Positions 20,512 through 29,889 of a stretch of 64,000 bases of DNA are shown here, one piece after another. The position numbers were made by a program, and so were the translations under genes. The stretch spans positions 7,950 through 71,949 of the forward strand of contig DAHXLH010000029.1 of the NCBI GenBank assembly GCA_027366115.1, written 5' to 3'. The first letter of the stretch is position 1, and the number at the start of each line of letters is the position of its first letter. Below the pieces are notes generated by a model. It worked only from the letters and a program-made list of their open reading frames with translations, did not search any database and was not told the origin of the DNA. The DNA comes from Phycisphaerales bacterium. GTDB lineage: Bacteria > Planctomycetota > Phycisphaerae > WQYP01.

Positions 20512-21042
20512 TCAAACGCTGGGCTTCTGGGCAGGCGTGACGCTGTTGCGCAGCGGGATATTCCCAATACGATAATACGTCAAAAAGTCTACCCCCTTTG
20601 ATTCGCGCCGTTCGGCTACTCGCCATTCATCTTCATTCCATTTCGGAAACCAAGTATCGCCGATCGCCGGCGTATCGAGTTTTATGATGCTGATGTACAT
20701 GCGATCGGCCAAAGGGATCGCCAAGGCATATATTTCCGCACCGCCGACAACGAATAATTCCTGTTCACCGGAATCCTCGGCTGCGGCAAGGGCCTCTGGA
20801 AGTTGAGTAAACCATTGCGTGCCCGCCGGAATCGGGGATGGAATATTCCGGCTAAGTATCAGATTGCGGCGCTTGGGCAGCGGCCTGCCGAGGGAGTCAA
20901 AGGTTTTGCGACCCATTAAAACAGTGTGGCCGGTGGTAAGGCGTTTGAAGTGCTGAAGATCTTCCGGCACATGCCACGGAAGTTGTCCTTTCCACCCAAT
21001 CACATGATCCGGCGTCATCGCAGAAATAAGGCTGACAAGCAT
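20512..21042 (-). CDS. folA: Dihydrofolate reductase
   Basis: DHFR motifs MLVSLISAM..VIG..G.LPW..P.D...F...T.G..V.MGRKTF.S.G.PLP.R.N.ILSR and VGG..IY. The track ORF starts 54 codons upstream (21204). The internal ATG at 21042 has an AGGAG SD and gives a normal 177-aa DHFR. Confidence 0.85.
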   Translation of the reverse strand: MLVSLISAMTPDHVIGWKGQLPWHVPEDLQHFKRLTTGHTVLMGRKTFDSLGRPLPKRRNLILSRNIPSPIPAGTQWFTQLPEALAAAEDSGEQELFVVGGAEIYALAIPLADRMYISIIKLDTPAIGDTWFPKWNEDEWRVAERRESKGVDFLTYYRIGNIPLRNSVTPAQKPSV

Positions 21043-21509
21043 CAAGCACCCGTTGTAAAAATCGCGCCAGGAATGAACCTCCACTCCGGATCGCATATAC
21101 AAACCGCACCGACCATCAATCGACACACCAGTCGCGGTTGGAATTCTCACAATTTTACGCCAAAATTCCGCTGCGTCCATAAAAGTGGTCAAGTGTTCTG
21201 CCACTGAAGTACACTAGGATGCGTAACAAGAACGCGCGGCAAGGAGGCGGTGCGGATTGAGGGGGATCCAGTCTTAAATTTTGGCACGCTGTATGCGGCC
21301 CAAACAGGTTGTAAAAAAAAGACCGCGGATTACGCGGATAAACACTGGCCCTCTGTGTTCCGGGACCTCGATACGCGTCACTCACAGCGCCGTTTGATAA
21401 TTGTAATGGTAATCAGAACTACTTTTCTCCGCCGCCCATACCGCAGCGACCCCAAACCAATCCTGCTCGTATCCGCGTGACCCGCGAAATCCGCGGTTCT
21501 CTCCCGTAA

Positions 21510-21723
21510 TGTTCACTTTACGTGGACGATCTGGTTACCGATGAACACCGGAGATCACAAGGTGTCGGAAAACTGCTGCTGGATTGGCTGGTCGCGGAGG
21601 CACGCCGACAAAAAGTGCAAACACGTCGCTCTGGATTCCGGCGTGCAGCGGTTTGCGTCGCATCGCTTTTATCTGCGGCACGGTATGAACATTACCGCTC
21701 ATCATTTCGCGATGGAGTTGTGA
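21510..21723 (+). pseudogene. GNAT-family N-acetyltransferase remnant (N-terminally truncated, +1 frameshift in an A5 run near 21610-21614)
   Basis: Frame A: LYVDDLVTDEHRRSQGVGKLLLDWLVAEARRQ (GNAT motif A, R/Q-x-x-G-x-G/A). The continuation, CKHVALDSGVQRFASHRFYLRHGMNITAHHFAMEL* (motif B), is in the +1 frame. Only ~75 residues of a ~160-aa fold are present. A stop lies just upstream at 21507-21509. Confidence 0.55.
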
Positions 21724-21777
21724 TTCCGGGTTTCGTGCAGCGGAGAGCTTTCATATAATCAATCTGACTCTTGGAGC

Positions 21778-22326
21778 GTGGCAATGTCAATGGTGATGTT
21801 TACGGTTTTGTACCCAGACCTCGGTGCCGCTGAGACACGATGTATTATCGTGCAATCCGGCGGTCGTTGGCACCGGCGCGAGGAAGAGGCGGAAGAATTT
21901 GCATTGTTCGAATTATATTGCGCCGAGCCGGGATGCAACTGCCGACGGGTGTTGTTCAACGTGGTATCCAAGCGCTTGGATCGGCATGTCGCGACCATCA
22001 ACCACGCCTTTGAGGCCCCCGGAGAAAAATCCGCAGTTTCGGAACAGACATTTCTTGATCCACTGAATCGGCAGTCTGATTTATCCGAAGACCTGTTGGC
22101 TATTCTTACGCGGCGGGTCCTGATGGATTCCGAATATTGCAGGCGACTGGAGCGGCATTACGCCATGTTTAAGGAAGTAGTGAATAATCCGCAACACCCG
22201 TTGCATGGAAAAATTCTCCCATATTTTGATGAACCAAGGGAGGAAAACCGCAGGGATATTTCAGACATCACCTCATGGCGTGTCCGCAGGCGGATGAGGG
22301 AAAACCGCCGAAAGCGCGGAAGGTAG
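21778..22326 (+). CDS. Hypothetical protein (Cys-containing, no recognised domain)
   Basis: 182-aa ORF. A perfect TATAAT at 21754-21759 and GGAG at 21773-21776 favour the ATG at 21784 over the GTG at 21778. Product unassignable from sequence. Confidence 0.45.
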   Translation: MAMSMVMFTVLYPDLGAAETRCIIVQSGGRWHRREEEAEEFALFELYCAEPGCNCRRVLFNVVSKRLDRHVATINHAFEAPGEKSAVSEQTFLDPLNRQSDLSEDLLAILTRRVLMDSEYCRRLERHYAMFKEVVNNPQHPLHGKILPYFDEPREENRRDISDITSWRVRRRMRENRRKRGR

Positions 22327-22362
22327 CCGGGCTATTTTTATGATGCCATCAAAGAAACCAGT

Positions 22363-24318
22363 TTATTCCTGGTCTTCGCGCAACTTGGCTAAAACCGAAT
22401 AGTCTTCCAGCGTGCTGGTGTCGCCCACGGCTTGTTTCCCGGCGGCGATGTCCCGCAGCAGGCGTCGCATGATCTTGCCGGAGCGAGTTTTTGGCAAGGC
22501 CTCGGTGAAACGCACTTCATCGGGACGGGCAATAGCACCAATTTCCTTGGCCACCCAGGCTTTTAATTCCTGTTTCAGGGCGTCATCGGTGGCAATTCCC
22601 GCCTTGACGGTGACAAACGCACACAGGGCCTGCCCCTTCAGTTCATCGGGGCGGCCAACCACGGCCGCTTCAGCCACTTTGCTGTGGGCCACCAGCGCGC
22701 TTTCAACTTCCATGGTGCCTAACCGATGTCCCGCAACATTGACGACATCATCCACGCGGCCCATGACCCAGAAGTACCCGTCTTTATCCCGCCGCGCGCC
22801 ATCACCGGTGAAATAATAGGGGGGAATATCACTGTAATACTGTTTCTTAAAACGCTCATCATCCCTATACACCGTGCGCAACATGCTCGGCACGGGTTTA
22901 CGGATCACCAGATATCCTCCGGTGTCCGGCGGCACTTCCTGCCCGTCCCGATCCACGACAGCCAGATCCACCCCAAAAACTGGGATCGCACAACTCCCCG
23001 GCCTGCCCGGCGTGATTCCCGGCAATGGTGTGCACATAATGGATCCGGTTTCCGTCTGCCACCAGGTATCGACAATGGGGCATTTTTCACCACCGATGAC
23101 GCGGTGATACCACATCCACGCCTCCGGGTTGATTGGCTCGCCGACCGTTCCCAACAGTCGGAGGCTGGATAGATCATGGCGCTGCGGGAATTGGTCACCC
23201 CATTTTACAAAGGCTCGTATGGCTGTAGGCGCGGTGTAAAACACATTGACGCGGTATTTTTCAATGATACTCCAGAATCGGTCCATATCCGGTTGATTGG
23301 GCGCGCCTTCATACATAACCACACTGGCGCCGCAGGCCAGCGGGCCGTAAACCATATAGGTATGGCCCGTCACCCAGCCAATATCCGCGGTGCACCAGTA
23401 GATATCTTCTTTTCTTAAATCAAATACATATTTACATGTCATATAGGCACCCAGCAGGTAGCCGGCCGTGGTATGCACCACGCCCTTGGGCTTGCCGGTG
23501 GTGCCGCTGGTGTACAAAATAAAGAGCATCTGTTCGCTGTCCAGGGCGGCGGAGGGGCAATGGTCGGAACTGCCGGAGATAAAGTCGTCGTACCACACAT
23601 CTCTTCCCGGCTGCATGGTAATATTCTGGCCCGTGCGCTTCACCACAATACAACGTTGCACGCATGGGGCTTTGGCCAGCGCCGCATCGGCATTCGTTTT
23701 TAATTCGACAATTTTTCCGCGCCGCCATCCCCCGTCGGCGGTGATTAACGCCACCGCCTGCGCATCATTCATACGATCTCCCAGGGATTCAGCGGCAAAA
23801 CCACCGAAAATCACGGTATGTACCGCTCCAATCCGGGCACACGCCAGCATCGCCACGGCGGCTTCAGGAATCATGGGCATATAAATCGCCACGCGATCGC
23901 CCGGCTGTACGCCATGAGATTTCAGGGCGTTGGCTAAGCGGCAGACTTCTGTGAGTAATTCGCGATAAGTTAATGTTTTACTGTCACCGGGTTCGCCCTC
24001 CCAGAGAATAGCGGGTTTGTCGCCCCGGCCCGCATCCACATGTCGGTCCAGACAATTTTGCGCAATATTGATTTTTCCGCCGGTGAACCATTTAACAAAA
24101 GGGGACTTGCTGTCATCAAGAACATGGGTGTAAGGGGTCAGCCAAGCCAAGTCGCCGGCCATCTCCGCCCAGAATTCCTGAGGATGGTCAATGGACCGGC
24201 GGTACATGCGTTCATATTGTTCCTGAGAACTGATGTGCGCTTTGGCGGTAAAGGATGCGGCCGGTGCAAAGGTGCGATTTTCACGCATAAGAGATTCAAT
24301 ATTTGCGCCAACGGACAT
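22363..24318 (-). CDS. acs: Acetyl-coenzyme A synthetase (AMP-forming)
   Basis: 651 aa with full-length similarity to Acs. AMP-binding motifs [11 protein letters not shown] and TGD, and a conserved C-terminus (...[12 protein letters not shown]...). Confidence 0.93.
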
Positions 24319-24777
24319 AACGGCTCCTCATGAATTCCGGCGATTTCCGCCTAAATGATGTCACAGTATTCCATGATAGCGAACGCCGGAATAAAAAGCA
24401 CGGGTTGACAGCCAGTGGACAGAACGTGCGGTCATTTGGTGGTCATTATCTTCCTCCACTTTCACGGCACTCATGACCTCTCCTGGCCCCGACACCCGGG
24501 AATAAAACCAGATCCAGCAGACTATCCCGGGACCTTGAGTCGGCCAAACGCAAACAGCGGCAGGAAATTTTCGCAGCGGAAGATCAGATTATGGAAAAGC
24601 GTGATCGGCTTATCGAAGCCCTTCATCGCCGCATGAGTCAAAAAACCAGCCGGACACGGCTGTTTATGATCCGGTGGGAAGTGGTGTGAAACGGTTGCGC
24701 AGGCGGGAACAGCACCAGTTGCTCCATATGGGGCTGCCGAACAGAGTTTCCCGCAGCCCTTTCATGCGATCGGGCGA

Positions 24778-25248
24778 TCAAGTCCCTTGCGGCCTGATCA
24801 GTCTTGAACAGTTGCGCAATGCCAGTGCCCATTCTTCCATCTTTTGTTCTTTCTCTGTGTCGCGGCGATCCAAGCTGTTAAGCTCCGGTATAACGGCGTG
24901 GCTAGGATCCTTTGGAAGTGGAGCACCGCGGACGCTCAACCCGATGCGATAAACATCCGACGCCGCAAATTCCGCCAGTGGAACACGCTCGCCGGTATCC
25001 GGACGGCGGGACGCCGTGACGGCATCCGTCAGCAATGCGCAATTAATGGAAATGCCGTCTGAGTCGCCGAGGCGCTCATCAGATTGCCACGGCCGCGGCA
25101 TAAAATACCTCTGTGGAATGACGAGCGTCGGGGCACGAGACCAGGCACCCGGCAGCAGTCGTCGGTAAAGCAGCTCTGCACCTGGAACGCCCGTGGCACT
25201 GGCAGGCCCGGATGGCACTGCGGGAATTTTTGTGTCGGGCATGCGCAA
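24778..25248 (-). CDS. Hypothetical protein (third gene of a coupled three-gene operon)
   Basis: 156-aa ORF whose start codon abuts the stop of the upstream gene (25249). No recognisable motif. Confidence 0.5.
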   Translation of the reverse strand: MRMPDTKIPAVPSGPASATGVPGAELLYRRLLPGAWSRAPTLVIPQRYFMPRPWQSDERLGDSDGISINCALLTDAVTASRRPDTGERVPLAEFAASDVYRIGLSVRGAPLPKDPSHAVIPELNSLDRRDTEKEQKMEEWALALRNCSRLIRPQGT

Positions 25249-25704
25249 CTATCCTTGAAGTTGCAATCGTCGGCTTTGCGGATTCCGCCGCAGGGTATCC
25301 CGCGCGGCAACCTTGCCCGCGCTGTCAAAACGGATATACGAGGCGGTGCCCAAGCCTATAAATTCTACGATGATCGTTTCAGACGGCGTATTCCACTCCA
25401 TGGCAATCCGACCGCCGCCCGACGGTACAATGCTGTCCGGGGCACTTGTTCCAGTGTCGCTTTGGTCTACCGCAAAATCAATCGCAGTATCGGCAACATC
25501 CTGCGCCGGGTAATCCTCGCAATTCTCCACGATTCTTGTTTTTTTCCACGCCAGCATCTGGTCGATCGCCTGTTTCCAGAGGGCCGCCTCCCTATTGGGC
25601 GGCCGCGTTAGCGCGATTCCTGCGGCATATGCGGTGCCCCCAGCGGGGATAATGCGATCACGCGCAATTCCGTTATCCTGGATTAGCATCATCGAGCCTT
25701 TCAT
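25249..25704 (-). CDS. Hypothetical protein (second gene of the coupled operon)
   Basis: Track ORF 25249..25719. The Met at residue 6 (MKGSMML...) has a GGGAG SD and overlaps the upstream stop as ATGA. About 151 aa, no recognisable motif. Confidence 0.5.
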   Translation of the reverse strand: MKGSMMLIQDNGIARDRIIPAGGTAYAAGIALTRPPNREAALWKQAIDQMLAWKKTRIVENCEDYPAQDVADTAIDFAVDQSDTGTSAPDSIVPSGGGRIAMEWNTPSETIIVEFIGLGTASYIRFDSAGKVAARDTLRRNPQSRRLQLQG

Positions 25705-26522
25705 GTTGTACGCTCCCATTTCCAGTGGGCTTCATGTCCCGTCAAATCACAAAACGCACGGACAACGGCCTGATGGCCAAGTTCCAATCCATTATACGCC
25801 TGCTGCATGTTCCCTTCCCGCACACCACCGCGCGCGGCAATCTGCAATGCCAGAATCTCTGACGCCGCGGGATCTAGGCTATTGAAGCCATGGAGCAATT
25901 CGACATAGACTCTTCCTGCATTATCGGGCATCAGGGACTGCGTTCTGCAGGATAAGGATTCCAGTGTGCCGACCGAAAGACCGTTTCCCTCGGCAACCAA
26001 CCCGGGTAGCATCGCGGGCCAATCTTTCGGGCTGTTCCAGTCTCGCCCTCGCATCAGGTGGTTGACATACACCACCTCCCACTGATTAGGTAATATCGGC
26101 CCTAAATTTTCCGCCGCCAAGGCCTCGTTAAATGTTTTTACCGCCTCACGAAATTTTGGCAGCAGTCCTTTCCAGTGGGGATAGTCCGCGTTTTCTCCCT
26201 TTCGCCAATTAAAAATGATGCGGCCATTCTGCACCTGCGCCACCGTGCAATTATCAGAGGACGTCATTTCCAGCCGTGCGGCCGCACTAGCCGGCGCAAT
26301 TTGGAAACTTGGCATGAGACGGGGACGCAGCGCCTGCTCACCAAAGACTTCGGTTTGCTCAGGAAGTGGTTGGGCGTCTGAAACCTTTGGAAAATCCGCC
26401 CGCATGGCCTGCCAAAAAATCGCCAGATGGACGTTTTTCAAATTCTTTATCGCATTAAACTGAAGCGCGACCGCAGTCTCCACCAATGGCGGCTTTCTGA
26501 AGGATGGCAGTGGTGTTTCCAT
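25701..26522 (-). CDS. Uncharacterised protein, TIGR04255-like conserved hypothetical family (tentative)
   Basis: Track ORF 25701..26729 (342 aa). The internal Met70 (METPLPSFRKPPLVETAVALQF...) is preceded by GAGGTG and gives ~273 aa, the size I recall for TIGR04255 proteins, whose N-terminus is also P-L-(V/I)-E-rich. Family assignment is from memory. Confidence 0.5.
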   Translation of the reverse strand: METPLPSFRKPPLVETAVALQFNAIKNLKNVHLAIFWQAMRADFPKVSDAQPLPEQTEVFGEQALRPRLMPSFQIAPASAAARLEMTSSDNCTVAQVQNGRIIFNWRKGENADYPHWKGLLPKFREAVKTFNEALAAENLGPILPNQWEVVYVNHLMRGRDWNSPKDWPAMLPGLVAEGNGLSVGTLESLSCRTQSLMPDNAGRVYVELLHGFNSLDPAASEILALQIAARGGVREGNMQQAYNGLELGHQAVVRAFCDLTGHEAHWKWERTT

Positions 26523-26792
26523 ATCACCTCGACGGATTCCGCACGCAACTGTACAAAGCCCCCGGCCCAGAAGCTCTGTACGCTCCGATGCCCACCGCAG
26601 CATCAGTATGGAAACATTTTCACTCCAGGCGAGGAAACCGTCAACCCGATTCTCTGTGCCGTTGGCTTGGGGCGAGGAGTCGGTCCGGCCAATCGTCGCT
26701 TTGGGAGCGTGATTTTTGACTGCTATCAAGCACGATCCGTGGAGTATTGATTGATCAATGTAAAAAATCAGTCGGTTTTAGCGTCTGAGTAA

Positions 26793-27461
26793 TCACCCCT
26801 TTCGCAGTATGTTTTCTTTTTTATCATTGGGCTCTAGCCGTCGGAAGCAATCCCCCTGGGGACCCACCGCCATGACGGGGCATTCACTTTCCCGCACCAC
26901 GGTTTCCACGGTAGAGCCGAGAAAAAATTTGCCCGCGGTCGTGCGCCCGTGGCTACCGATGATAATTAAGTCCGCGTGCCACTGCTGCGCCACCGCCAAA
27001 ATTTCTCCGCCGGGATTTCCGCACCGCACAAAGTGTTCGGTCGCCGCCAGTTGGGCTTCTTCCACCACCGACCGGCACAGGGATTCCCCCTCCCGCTTAA
27101 GCCTGTCCAGCGCCGGGGGCGTTAAATGTTCGCCGCCGGAAATCGACACGGGCGACACATCGACCACATGCACCACCGCAACTTCCGCGGCCAGATCGTG
27201 GGCCAAAGTTATGGCCGTTTCAACGGCCCGCACCGCCGAGGGGCTGAAATCAACCGCCACAAGAATGCGACGAGCCTTGCAGGGACGATGCGAAGGCTGC
27301 GGGATTGCAAGCTCCTGGGAAATATTCATGATCAGTTCATCGGCACGCCATGAGGGCATACCGGCCGCCATCAGCACTTTTCGTGCTTCGGGAAGGAAGT
27401 TTTTTATATCCAATGCCGGGGTATTTCCGGACATTACAAATCTCCAGTTGCGACCGACCAT
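26793..27461 (-). CDS. Universal stress protein (UspA domain) with ~70-aa N-terminal extension
   Basis: Usp motifs ILVAVDFSPSAVRAVETA...VVHVVD and ADLIIIGSHGRT..GKFFLGSTVETVVRESECPVMAV. Confidence 0.75.
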   Translation of the reverse strand: MVGRNWRFVMSGNTPALDIKNFLPEARKVLMAAGMPSWRADELIMNISQELAIPQPSHRPCKARRILVAVDFSPSAVRAVETAITLAHDLAAEVAVVHVVDVSPVSISGGEHLTPPALDRLKREGESLCRSVVEEAQLAATEHFVRCGNPGGEILAVAQQWHADLIIIGSHGRTTAGKFFLGSTVETVVRESECPVMAVGPQGDCFRRLEPNDKKENILRKG

Positions 27462-27717: not shown

Positions 27718-29889
27718 TTATGGAGTCTTCACGGCCTCGCCTCCGCCTGCGGAGACGGAGGGTTTATCGGCGGCGGACTTCTCCGGCGTGGCCGCATGGA
27801 CGATCAAAACCGAGCACGTGCTAAGCACCGCAACAGAGCTTTGATTACTGCCCAGCAGATGCTGTCGCAATCGCCATAACGGTGACATGCCCAGAATCAT
27901 GAGATCGTAATCGCGGGAGCACTCGCTGACGGCGGAAACTGGCGTATCGGTTTCAATGACGGTCATGCGGATTTGATTGCCGCCATCGGTTCCGGGCAAA
28001 AATCGATCCACCAGCTCCTTGACCCCTAAAGGTTCCGCGTCATTAGGGCGTTTGGGTTTCACAACATGCAGGATGGTGATTTCCACATCGGCATTTTTAC
28101 TGATTCTCTGCGCTGCCAGCAGGGCACCGGCATCCTGCGCTTCACCGAGATAAGGTACGAGCACCCGGCGAAGGGTGGTCAGGCGTTTGTTGATGAGAAT
28201 GGCCACATTCTTGCTGCTGTGTTTCAGCACATGGTCCACCACGCCGCCGAGCACGGACGTATTGACGATTCCCTGATGGGCACCCAGCACGGTCCAATCC
28301 ACCTGTTGATGTTCAATAACTTTGCAGATATCCCGTGCAATGTGCATGCTGGGCGGCGAAAGGGTTGTGAGTTCAAAATTCAGAGTTTTCGCTTCCGCAG
28401 CGGCAAGGGTAATAGGATCGAACTCGTCGGCCTTCGCGGTATCACTAACGATAGATGATTCCGCAGGCTGGCGCAGCAAAAGTGCGGTAATGCGCCCCGG
28501 TTCGCCCCCCAATAGAGCGTGCGATACGTGTATTAACCCTCTCACTGTGCCGGTTTGGGAAAGTGATGCCAGAATATGGAGTTTCGGGGCTTCATCTTTT
28601 GGCGTTTCGGTAGCGGCGATGTCGGCCTGCGATCGGCGACGCATGGGCAGTCGTGCCACGCGCAGCAAAATTGAGGCTATGGTGGTAATAGCCAGAAACG
28701 CCAGCACCAGCACCGTTAAGGTTCTTGAACTGATCGCCCCCATTTGCCACGCCAGACTCAGCACCACAAGTTCCACCACGCCGTGGGTATTCATCAGCAG
28801 ACCGGTTAAGCCTGCGGCGCTCCAGCTTGAACCGGTGATTTTGGCCGTTACGCTGCTGAAGAAAAATTTCGCCAGCATCAGAACTGCGATCAGATATCCC
28901 CAGCTTTTCCAGACGGCCAGCGAATGCAGTTGTGTGATATTGATGTGCATGCCGACGCTGGCAAAAAATATCGGAAGCAGCAGCAGCAAAGTAATATCTT
29001 CAAGCTTGCTGGAAATATGGCGCACGAAATTTTCGCTCGAAGGAAACACCAGCCCCAGCATGAAGGCCCCGAATATGCCGTTGATACCCAGCGCCGTTGT
29101 CACCAGGCTGCTGACCAGGAGAAGAAAAAATGTCAGCGCCAGCACATCGCGGGTCACATGACCGCGAAGTTCAAAGTGCGACTCAAAACGCCAGAGAAAT
29201 CGGCGCACAAAAAACATCATCACAACAATATAGGCCCCGGCGAGAACCGCCGTTTTTATTCCCAATCCCACCGAGGATAATATATCGCCGTTGCCGGAAA
29301 GTTGCACTTTCGCCAGATCATACACGACCGCCAGCAGGCACCATCCGGATACATCCAGCACGGCCCCCGTGGTGATAACAAATGCCCCGACCTCGGTGTC
29401 TTTCAGATTCTGCTCATTGATGATTCGGGCCAAAACCGGAAACGCGGTCATCCCCATCGCCAGTGCGGCCATCAGGATAAAGGCCGCCGGCGATTTTACA
29501 TGTCCCACCAGAGCGGGGTGCTTGAGCATCAGCCACGCAATAAGCAATCCTGCCGCAAAAGGACCCAGGAGACTGACTAAACCGGTGGCAACGACACTGG
29601 CCCCTTTGCCCCGCACGCGAGCCAGGTCCAGTTCCAAGCCCACGATAAACATAAAAAACATGACGCCCAGTTGGGCAAGCAGGTTCAGAAACTGCATTCC
29701 TTTAGCCGGAAACAGCCAATGAAAATAGGCTCCGTGGGCCAGCAGCCCCAGCGCGGAAGGCCCAATAATCAGGCCGCCGATCATTTCTCCAATGACTTCC
29801 GGTTGCCCCAACAGCCGCAATAGCGCACCGCAAAAACGTGCCGCCAACAGGATCACGGCAATTTGCATAATCAGATGTTCAATGGTCAA
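27718..29889 (-). CDS. Monovalent cation:proton antiporter-2 (CPA2, KefB/NhaP-like) fused to C-terminal tandem universal-stress-protein domains
   Basis: 723 aa. N-terminal ~400 aa with about 12 TM helices and the CPA2-like start MTIEHLIMQIAVILLAARFCGALLRLLGQPEVIGEMIGGLIIGPS. C-terminal ~290 aa with two Usp-like alpha/beta units (VLVPYLG..ITILHVV and MILGMSPLWRLRQHLLGSNQSSVAVLSTCSVLIVH). Confidence 0.85.
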   Translation of the reverse strand: MTIEHLIMQIAVILLAARFCGALLRLLGQPEVIGEMIGGLIIGPSALGLLAHGAYFHWLFPAKGMQFLNLLAQLGVMFFMFIVGLELDLARVRGKGASVVATGLVSLLGPFAAGLLIAWLMLKHPALVGHVKSPAAFILMAALAMGMTAFPVLARIINEQNLKDTEVGAFVITTGAVLDVSGWCLLAVVYDLAKVQLSGNGDILSSVGLGIKTAVLAGAYIVVMMFFVRRFLWRFESHFELRGHVTRDVLALTFFLLLVSSLVTTALGINGIFGAFMLGLVFPSSENFVRHISSKLEDITLLLLLPIFFASVGMHINITQLHSLAVWKSWGYLIAVLMLAKFFFSSVTAKITGSSWSAAGLTGLLMNTHGVVELVVLSLAWQMGAISSRTLTVLVLAFLAITTIASILLRVARLPMRRRSQADIAATETPKDEAPKLHILASLSQTGTVRGLIHVSHALLGGEPGRITALLLRQPAESSIVSDTAKADEFDPITLAAAEAKTLNFELTTLSPPSMHIARDICKVIEHQQVDWTVLGAHQGIVNTSVLGGVVDHVLKHSSKNVAILINKRLTTLRRVLVPYLGEAQDAGALLAAQRISKNADVEITILHVVKPKRPNDAEPLGVKELVDRFLPGTDGGNQIRMTVIETDTPVSAVSECSRDYDLMILGMSPLWRLRQHLLGSNQSSVAVLSTCSVLIVHAATPEKSAADKPSVSAGGGEAVKTP

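Follow-up and report, generated by a model that had tools for sequence, protein, structure and literature searches.

Type II toxin-antitoxin (TA) systems with NAD+-using toxins of the ADP-ribosyltransferase (ART) fold, such as DarT-DarG, ParS-ParT and Xre-RES/MbcA-MbcT, are pairs of adjacent, co-translated genes for proteins of about 150 amino acids (aa), with the neutraliser first and the enzyme second, and show a scattered, mobile distribution. In the mobile conflict modules RnlA-RnlB and LsoA-LsoB, tandem TBP-like domains are combined with a small effector and an inhibitor. Tripartite TA systems (the toxin-antitoxin-chaperone type, TAC, as well as PaaR-PaaA-ParE and omega-epsilon-zeta) add a third accessory gene to a two-gene core. 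Here, a cassette of three co-oriented minus-strand genes, designated A, B and C in this order, was investigated. It lies between acs and usp in a stretch of 64,000 nucleotides (the window) of a Phycisphaerales bacterium (assembly GCA_027366115.1, contig DAHXLH010000029.1, positions 7,950 to 71,949). All of these known types share features with the cassette: B and C have the size, adjacency and proposed order of roles of the ART-type pairs, the proposed roles of the three genes parallel those in RnlA-RnlB, and a two-gene core with an accessory gene recalls the tripartite systems. B-C shows the usual marks of a type II pair, namely two small, adjacent, co-oriented and coupled genes that are conserved as a unit and have a patchy, mobile distribution at variable sites. 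The best explanation, although still a tentative one, is that the cassette represents a conflict module of the TA or abortive-infection type which is self-contained and moves horizontally.

The three genes were read from the sequence as open reading frames (ORFs). Gene A (25701-26522, minus strand) encodes 273 aa and starts with an ATG four bases after GAGGTG. Gene B (25249-25704, minus strand) encodes 151 aa and gene C (24778-25242, minus strand) 154 aa, from ATG 25242 to a stop codon ending at 24778. An earlier description of the window, made from its letters alone (the sequence-only reading), had proposed three packed minus-strand ORFs between acs and usp, which was confirmed by the ORFs, by the gene order in about 100 loci and by matches of the flanking genes. 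It had also pointed to the ATGA at 25701-25704 (minus strand), where the TGA of A overlaps the ATG of B. This overlap was found as described and indicates translational coupling; it is kept in L020, a collinear metagenome-assembled genome (MAG) of the Phycisphaerales with about 87% nucleotide identity. The proposed abutting junction of B and C at 25248/25249, however, needs a TTG start. ATG 25242 is the likelier start of C than TTG 25248, because a Shine-Dalgarno sequence, AAGGA, is present at 25252-25256 within the end of B and the gene calls of the public assembly have the same start. The junction (25243-25256, minus strand) thus comprises this site, the TAG of B (25249-25251) and a spacer of 6 nt. 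Of the lengths given earlier, 273 and 151 aa were correct, and the third product has 154 aa instead of 156; the public calls for the same sequence are 273, 151 and 154 aa.

In the window copy, B and C are in one reading frame. The same was found in 43 of 81 loci (53% vs 33% expected; p = 3e-4, a value not corrected for phylogeny). Read-through of the stop codon, yielding a B-C fusion, is conceivable.

Purifying selection acts on each of the three genes: in comparison with L020, the dN/dS values of A, B and C are 0.17, 0.23 and 0.22, and that of acs is 0.05. Low dN/dS and the same gene order in about 100 independent loci show that A, B and C are real genes. With iterated hidden Markov models (HMMs), A was seen to be followed directly by B in 99, and B directly by C in 96, of the 100 sources; the four GTDB loci without a detected C have at most about 350 nt of sequence beyond B. 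The adjacency and order of B and C are kept in all of the roughly 115 loci, the A-less ones among them. The pairwise distances obtained for the three genes correlate (r 0.76-0.79), thus A, B and C travel and diverge together.

The distribution was examined in GTDB with one genome per species. Among 185,579 species genomes, 154 pattern-matched relatives of A were obtained, a sporadic occurrence. The best 80 of these 154 belong mostly to Phycisphaerae and Planctomycetia, with few Gamma- and Betaproteobacteria, Elusimicrobia and Hydrogenedentota. On contigs with homologues of B or C, the trio is found in very different surroundings: between a type III restriction-modification (R-M) system (Mod/Res) and a DrmD-like SNF2 helicase gene (L002), next to a RES-Xre pair and gcvT/H (L003), in an island that also contains an integrase, a primase of the Prim-Pol/D5 type and part of a transposase (L007-10), and near transposases and HepT/MNT (L013). 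In L016-18, with A at 31-40% identity, it adjoins trkAH or thiG. One viral contig of IMG/VR carries the trio. On a plasmid of Mycobacterium paragordonae, mobF is followed by a TIGR04255 gene, a gene for 180 aa and a gene for 142 aa; the last is a homologue of C with the motifs LYR, DDGIS and AHS (E 3e-12 with the iterated model). The cassette was regarded from the beginning as an accessory insertion and not as a housekeeping operon, and its spread across phyla with different neighbours in almost every genome agrees with this. It is not universally conserved with the same neighbours: the distribution is sporadic and the neighbours are almost never the same.

All-against-all clustering of 534 neighbouring ORFs from 86 loci revealed no recurrent partner; the largest cluster covered five loci. 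According to Pfam, the 149 immediate neighbours include urocanase, ThiC, a KsgA-type rRNA dimethylase (RrnaAD), Hsp90, AccA, aconitase and tRNA synthetases. Without a recurrent partner and among ordinary housekeeping genes, the cassette appears as an insertion that stands alone at scattered sites, a typical feature of TA loci. The sequence-only reading had placed it among toxin/immunity, anti-phage or stress-response modules. The sporadic spread, the shifting neighbours and the copies in islands, on a plasmid and on a viral contig fit this class. A link to stress through usp and acs is not supported, since these neighbours are shared with just one close relative, L020. A distant cassette (A with 35% identity) in another planctomycete, L041 (7707-9644), also adjoins acs in convergent orientation, probably by coincidence.

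More distant metagenome loci (28-35% identity), which were retrieved with the alignment of C, contain many B-C pairs without A. In L103 (2077-3002), L111 (4394-5330) and L112 the pair is located between a PSCyt2/PSD1 (DUF1549/DUF1553) gene and a DUF1501 gene, and in L108 it follows a PMT_2 glycosyltransferase gene. Two tandem B-C pairs are wedged between gap and pgk in L114 (4409-6333). The existence of A-less pairs indicates that B-C is the core and that A is an addition of one large subclade, to which the window copy belongs. A closer A-less example is L011 (10001-12375), where B-C is followed by the gene of a 597-aa dynamin/LeoA-like P-loop protein. In L018 (9253-11693), C overlaps by 4 nt a gene for a DinG-like helicase (PADLOC typeIV_DinG, 449 bits). 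The helicase and the dynamin/LeoA-like protein may be alternative third components. Some copies are degenerate: C is split in L043 and L116, and in L013-15 its C-terminus is shortened so that 125 aa are left; L036 has a split A, and B is never disrupted. Such a pattern would be expected if C did harm in the absence of B.

Gene C belongs to a family of 327 clusters (50% identity) in 1.84e9 representatives, nearly all of them stand-alone proteins of 130-160 aa. Among 122 diverse members, R27, G63, S65 and H115 are invariant and E23, R28, F47, P49, D60 and R68 near-invariant, with the consensus E-x-LYRR ... AF-x-P ... D-x-DG(L/I)SV-x-R ... PGHA-x-IPELN. Neither the single sequence, the family profile nor any individual member of the C or B family had a match in NCBIfam, Pfam, PADLOC, PHROGs or the sequences of the PDB. 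The earlier statement that B and C carry no recognisable motif is therefore valid. Three longer representatives of the C family (P0112, P0210 and P0224) were considered as fusions, but no further domain, A and B included, was recognised in them, and they look like gene calls with a read-through or a frameshift. An HNH nuclease, a Ser-His-Asp hydrolase and a barnase-like RNase, which had been considered from the motifs of C, were rejected, as no model matched and these folds were absent among the Foldseek matches.

The AlphaFold2 model of C is of good quality (pLDDT 84, pTM 0.78), but has no significant neighbour in PDB and BFVD according to Foldseek. Five of the first seven PDB matches were Tpt1/KptA, and DarT was also among the top matches, all of them weak (E 0.7-2, probability at most 0.28, TM 0.27-0.35). 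Tpt1/KptA and DarT are nucleic-acid-directed members of the ADP-ribosyltransferase superfamily, which is characterised by a split beta-sheet and a catalytic triad, H-Y-E or R-S-E, in strands 1, 2 and 5. Read from the sequence of C, the position of an aromatic-Arg motif where strand 1 ends (R27) and of an invariant Ser in strand 2 (S65) recalls ARTs of the R-S-E type. In contrast to these, the third invariant residue of C is His115, and Glu120 is common (in the majority of members, but below 90%) and not invariant. In sequence and profile comparisons C matched neither DarT, RES and KptA nor, with the 122 members against Pfam, any ART family, and the TM-score is just about 0.33. Hence, an identification of C as Tpt1/KptA, RES or DarT was dropped for want of profile similarity, only a weak lead at fold level being left, and even the designation ART-like is doubtful.

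The B family members always lie directly upstream of C. Near-invariant residues are W43, A74, P89, G98 and E103, and B evolves fastest of the three genes, as antitoxins usually do. Autoregulation by most type II antitoxins relies on a DNA-binding domain of the HTH, RHH, AbrB or Phd kind. Unlike DarG, ParS and MbcA, B was found to have no macrodomain, no HTH and no MbcA/ParS-like domain. The tail RNPxSRxLELxG (25249-25290) is confined to the Phycisphaerae subclade and absent from the wider family. Two interpretations of B were rejected. A ubiquitin-like tail was considered from the end ...RNPQSRRLQLQG with a terminal Gly that is invariant in close homologues; it is restricted to the subclade, and its last codons overlap the Shine-Dalgarno sequence of C. 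A beta-propeller was considered from matches to 'Pizza' designer propellers (E ~1e-8); there, one stretch of 30 residues matches every blade, and no stretch is individually significant.

Gene A had been assigned to TIGR04255 in the sequence-only reading, and the NCBIfam model confirms this membership with 55.4 bits (cut-off 30; E 7.8e-15) over model positions 2-251 of 252. Relatives of A in the public records carry the TIGR04255 name. NCBIfam lists the family as a 'sporadically distributed' conserved hypothetical protein. No paper mentioning TIGR04255 was found in a literature search, and the family has no assigned function. No match was obtained for A with Pfam, PADLOC, PHROG or PDB sequences. 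The HMM searches proposed with the earlier description thus identified TIGR04255 for A, and no Pfam or PADLOC family for any of the three proteins. Structure comparison, proposed as well, led for A to TBP (E 6.6e-4) and for C just to the weak Tpt1/KptA and DarT matches. L051 has a complete A-B-C and, 2.2 kb upstream of it at the edge of the contig (3-188), the C-terminal part of another TIGR04255-like gene; the genes that follow this second gene match neither B nor C. This gives a hint that TIGR04255 proteins may pair with partners other than B and C.

The AlphaFold2 model of A, built from an alignment of 65 sequences, is confident (pLDDT 90.3, pTM 0.88). It has the order of secondary structure S1-H1-S2-S3-S4-S5-H2 twice in succession, suggestive of a tandem TBP-like saddle. 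The best Foldseek matches were TBP (probability 0.98) and phosphagen kinases, McsB among them, with their catalytic domain. As the TM-scores are just 0.25-0.35, A has no close structural relative, and at sequence level it gave no match to the TBP-domain superfamily. The invariant polar residues E15, R83, Q96, Q98, N105, E149, N154 and R231 are located on strands and, in the model, would form a binding or active surface on the sheet. RnlA was absent among the 50 best Foldseek matches listed for A. In contrast to RnlA, the TBP-like tandem of the cassette is a separate protein that is not fused to the effector, and no HEPN domain is present. The cassette also differs from TAC, PaaR-PaaA-ParE and omega-epsilon-zeta in that A is the first and largest gene and that no model of a SecB-like or other chaperone, HTH or RHH matched A.

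In the mechanism that we infer, the B-C pair would be the ancestral core and C a small effector enzyme, in which the invariant Arg, Gly, Ser and His together with the near-invariant Glu, Asp and further Arg would form the active site. The invariant residues and the several additional Arg suggest a substrate with phosphate, possibly NAD+ or nucleic acid. The fold of C may be new or that of a very divergent ADP-ribosyltransferase or Tpt1-like protein. B, translated just before C from the same mRNA, would bind C and hold it inactive, as a stoichiometric inhibitor or an adaptor; this role is proposed because B is made first, evolves fastest and is never lost. In one large subclade A would have been added in front and coupled translationally to B. 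By analogy with RnlA and RNase HIII, A might bind nucleic acid or a nucleotide-like ligand and thereby target or trigger B-C. In the TA and anti-phage toxin RnlA, the two TBP-like domains take part in binding of the RNA substrate (PMC8266594); in RNase HIII, a domain of this type binds RNA-DNA hybrids (PMC3710099).

Several results weigh against a toxin-antitoxin-like module. For the toxicity of C there is neither experimental nor homology-based evidence. B and C match no TA or defence family model in PADLOC, Pfam, NCBIfam and PHROG, and with PADLOC-DB v2 this holds up to E <= 1 and for A, too. With 87 members of the B family against Pfam (E <= 1) only scattered singletons were obtained, and no HTH, RHH, AbrB or Phd. 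The similarity of C to ART-fold proteins is below significance in Foldseek (E 0.7-2, TM ~0.33), and hhalign of the C family gave a probability of 0.2% with KptA of E. coli and 0.1% with a RES toxin. The 149 immediate neighbours in 80 species genomes are not enriched in defence or mobility genes. The disrupted copies are too few for statistics and could have been created by assembly errors in MAGs. Finally, the cassette is at the same site in the one close relative compared (L020), which gives no sign of recent mobility of this copy.

Part of this evidence would also agree with an accessory enzyme complex that is not toxic, but processes nucleic acids or nucleotides (for example in repair, modification or salvage), is of use from time to time and has spread horizontally without any toxin-antidote relation between its proteins. 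Purifying selection on all three genes, mostly housekeeping genes as immediate neighbours and the missing matches to defence or TA models are in line with it, as is the concave sheet of A with conserved Glu, Arg, Gln and Asn in a model that also resembles the phosphagen kinase domain of McsB. However, no functionally related gene recurs beside the cassette, and the distribution is very sparse and patchy. In addition, conserved gene pairs are interrupted by B-C, which is also found as tandem pairs, and copies of the cassette are present in mobile elements and defence islands. An enzyme complex of this kind is therefore considered rather unlikely.

Anti-phage defence without a classical antitoxin was considered as well; here A would sense a nucleic acid or nucleotide signal of the phage, B would be an adaptor and C the effector. 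This question is connected with the history of the window copy. The region 24319-24777 between C and acs had been described as non-coding, but this gap of 460 bp contains the remnant of a helicase gene (24528-24686, plus strand, convergent with the cassette). This in-frame remnant, detected by six-frame translation, encodes a C-terminal piece (53 aa) of a DrmD-like SNF2 helicase, which ends ...RDLESAKRKQRQEIFAAEDQIMEKRDRLIEALHRRMSQKTSRTRLFMIRWEVV. With the C-terminus of the full-length helicase of L002, which is also convergent to the cassette, it shares 68% identity, and with the truncated copies in L007-10 and L021 62%. In L020 a stub of 23 aa is retained. The similarity to helicase genes adjacent to the cassette in these loci indicates that the window subclade descends from a copy beside a DrmD-like gene in a defence island and that a piece of the helicase gene was carried along. 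Such a stub can serve as a marker for tracing the movement of the cassette out of defence islands. The check in close relatives that had been proposed earlier showed that L020 keeps the cassette at the same usp-acs site; from these shared neighbours, the insertion predates the split of the window genome and L020.

The L002 helicase matches DrmD of PADLOC with 639 bits and DISARM_DrmD_b of NCBIfam with 638 bits, under the cut-off of 950 bits, and no DrmB or DrmC was seen there. A DrmD-like gene or its 3' stub accompanies the cassette, in convergent orientation, in three different contexts including the window. Most copies of the cassette have no DrmD nearby, so that the cassette is to be regarded as a neighbour of DISARM and not as one of its components. 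The ancestral context of the window subclade with a DrmD-like helicase and a type III R-M system, the other copies beside RES-Xre and HepT/MNT, and the precedent of the anti-phage toxin RnlA with its tandem of TBP-like domains (PMC8266594) speak for a defence function. On the other hand, the neighbours in the 80 species genomes show no enrichment of defence islands, PADLOC gave no match, and the A-less B-C pairs indicate that a sensor is not obligatory. Defence without an antitoxin is thus unlikely. A function of plasmids or integrative elements themselves (anti-restriction, establishment or exclusion), left behind in chromosomes, is highly improbable, because in spite of the Mycobacterium plasmid copy directly downstream of mobF, one copy within the integrase/Prim-Pol-D5 island and one on a viral contig, a detectable homologue was present in just 1 of 72,556 plasmids and in none of 50,697 phage records, and most copies stand alone between housekeeping genes of the chromosome, where mobility genes are absent from the vicinity.

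On the flanks of the cassette, acs (22363-24318; TIGR02188, 1003 bits) and a gene with a Usp domain, usp (26793-27434), are located. The region of 270 bp upstream of A is 93% identical to L020, above the conservation of coding sequence. It contains a weak promoter-like site, TTGACG-17-GAAAAT (26616-26644, minus strand), from a consensus scan whose count is not above chance (3 sites vs 2.3 expected in shuffled sequence). Between this site and the stop codon of usp an imperfect inverted repeat of 23 nt was found at 26710-26770 (74% complementary, spacer of 15 nt). A candidate terminator, composed of a GC-rich hairpin and, on the minus strand, a subsequent T-run, is situated at 24647-24662, 115 nt past the stop codon of C; the number of such hairpins is likewise not above chance (7 vs 4.7 expected in shuffled sequence). 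Rfam RNAs, tRNA genes, target-site duplications or flanking direct repeats and an anomaly of the GC content were not found at the cassette region. Beyond acs, about 1.3 kb at 21043-22361, between the DHFR gene (20512-21204) and acs, are missing from the otherwise collinear L020; this segment includes a plus-strand ORF of 182 aa (21778-22326) with no NCBIfam match. On the other side, the stand-alone usp adjoins a gene (27718-29889, minus strand) for a 723-aa cation/proton antiporter of the CPA2 type fused to Usp domains.

In general, A is a TIGR04255 protein and B and C fit no known family, so the components and their architecture are new, and the general kind, a small mobile conflict cassette, is familiar. 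One clade of TIGR04255 is thereby tied to two undescribed partner families in a fixed unit of three genes. If the toxin-antitoxin reading is true, the cassette would offer a new effector fold and a new chemistry, with R27, S65 and H115 of C as targets for mutation, and it would be the second case after RnlA of TBP-like domains in bacterial conflict systems. A bolder and rather doubtful proposal is that B-C founds an undescribed TA family, with a toxin of a new or extremely divergent ART/Tpt1-like fold (Arg27, Ser65, His115) and with tandem TBP-like proteins of TIGR04255 as sensors or targeting subunits, together forming a tripartite defence triggered by nucleic acid. If this were true, it would be the first function for the TIGR04255 family.

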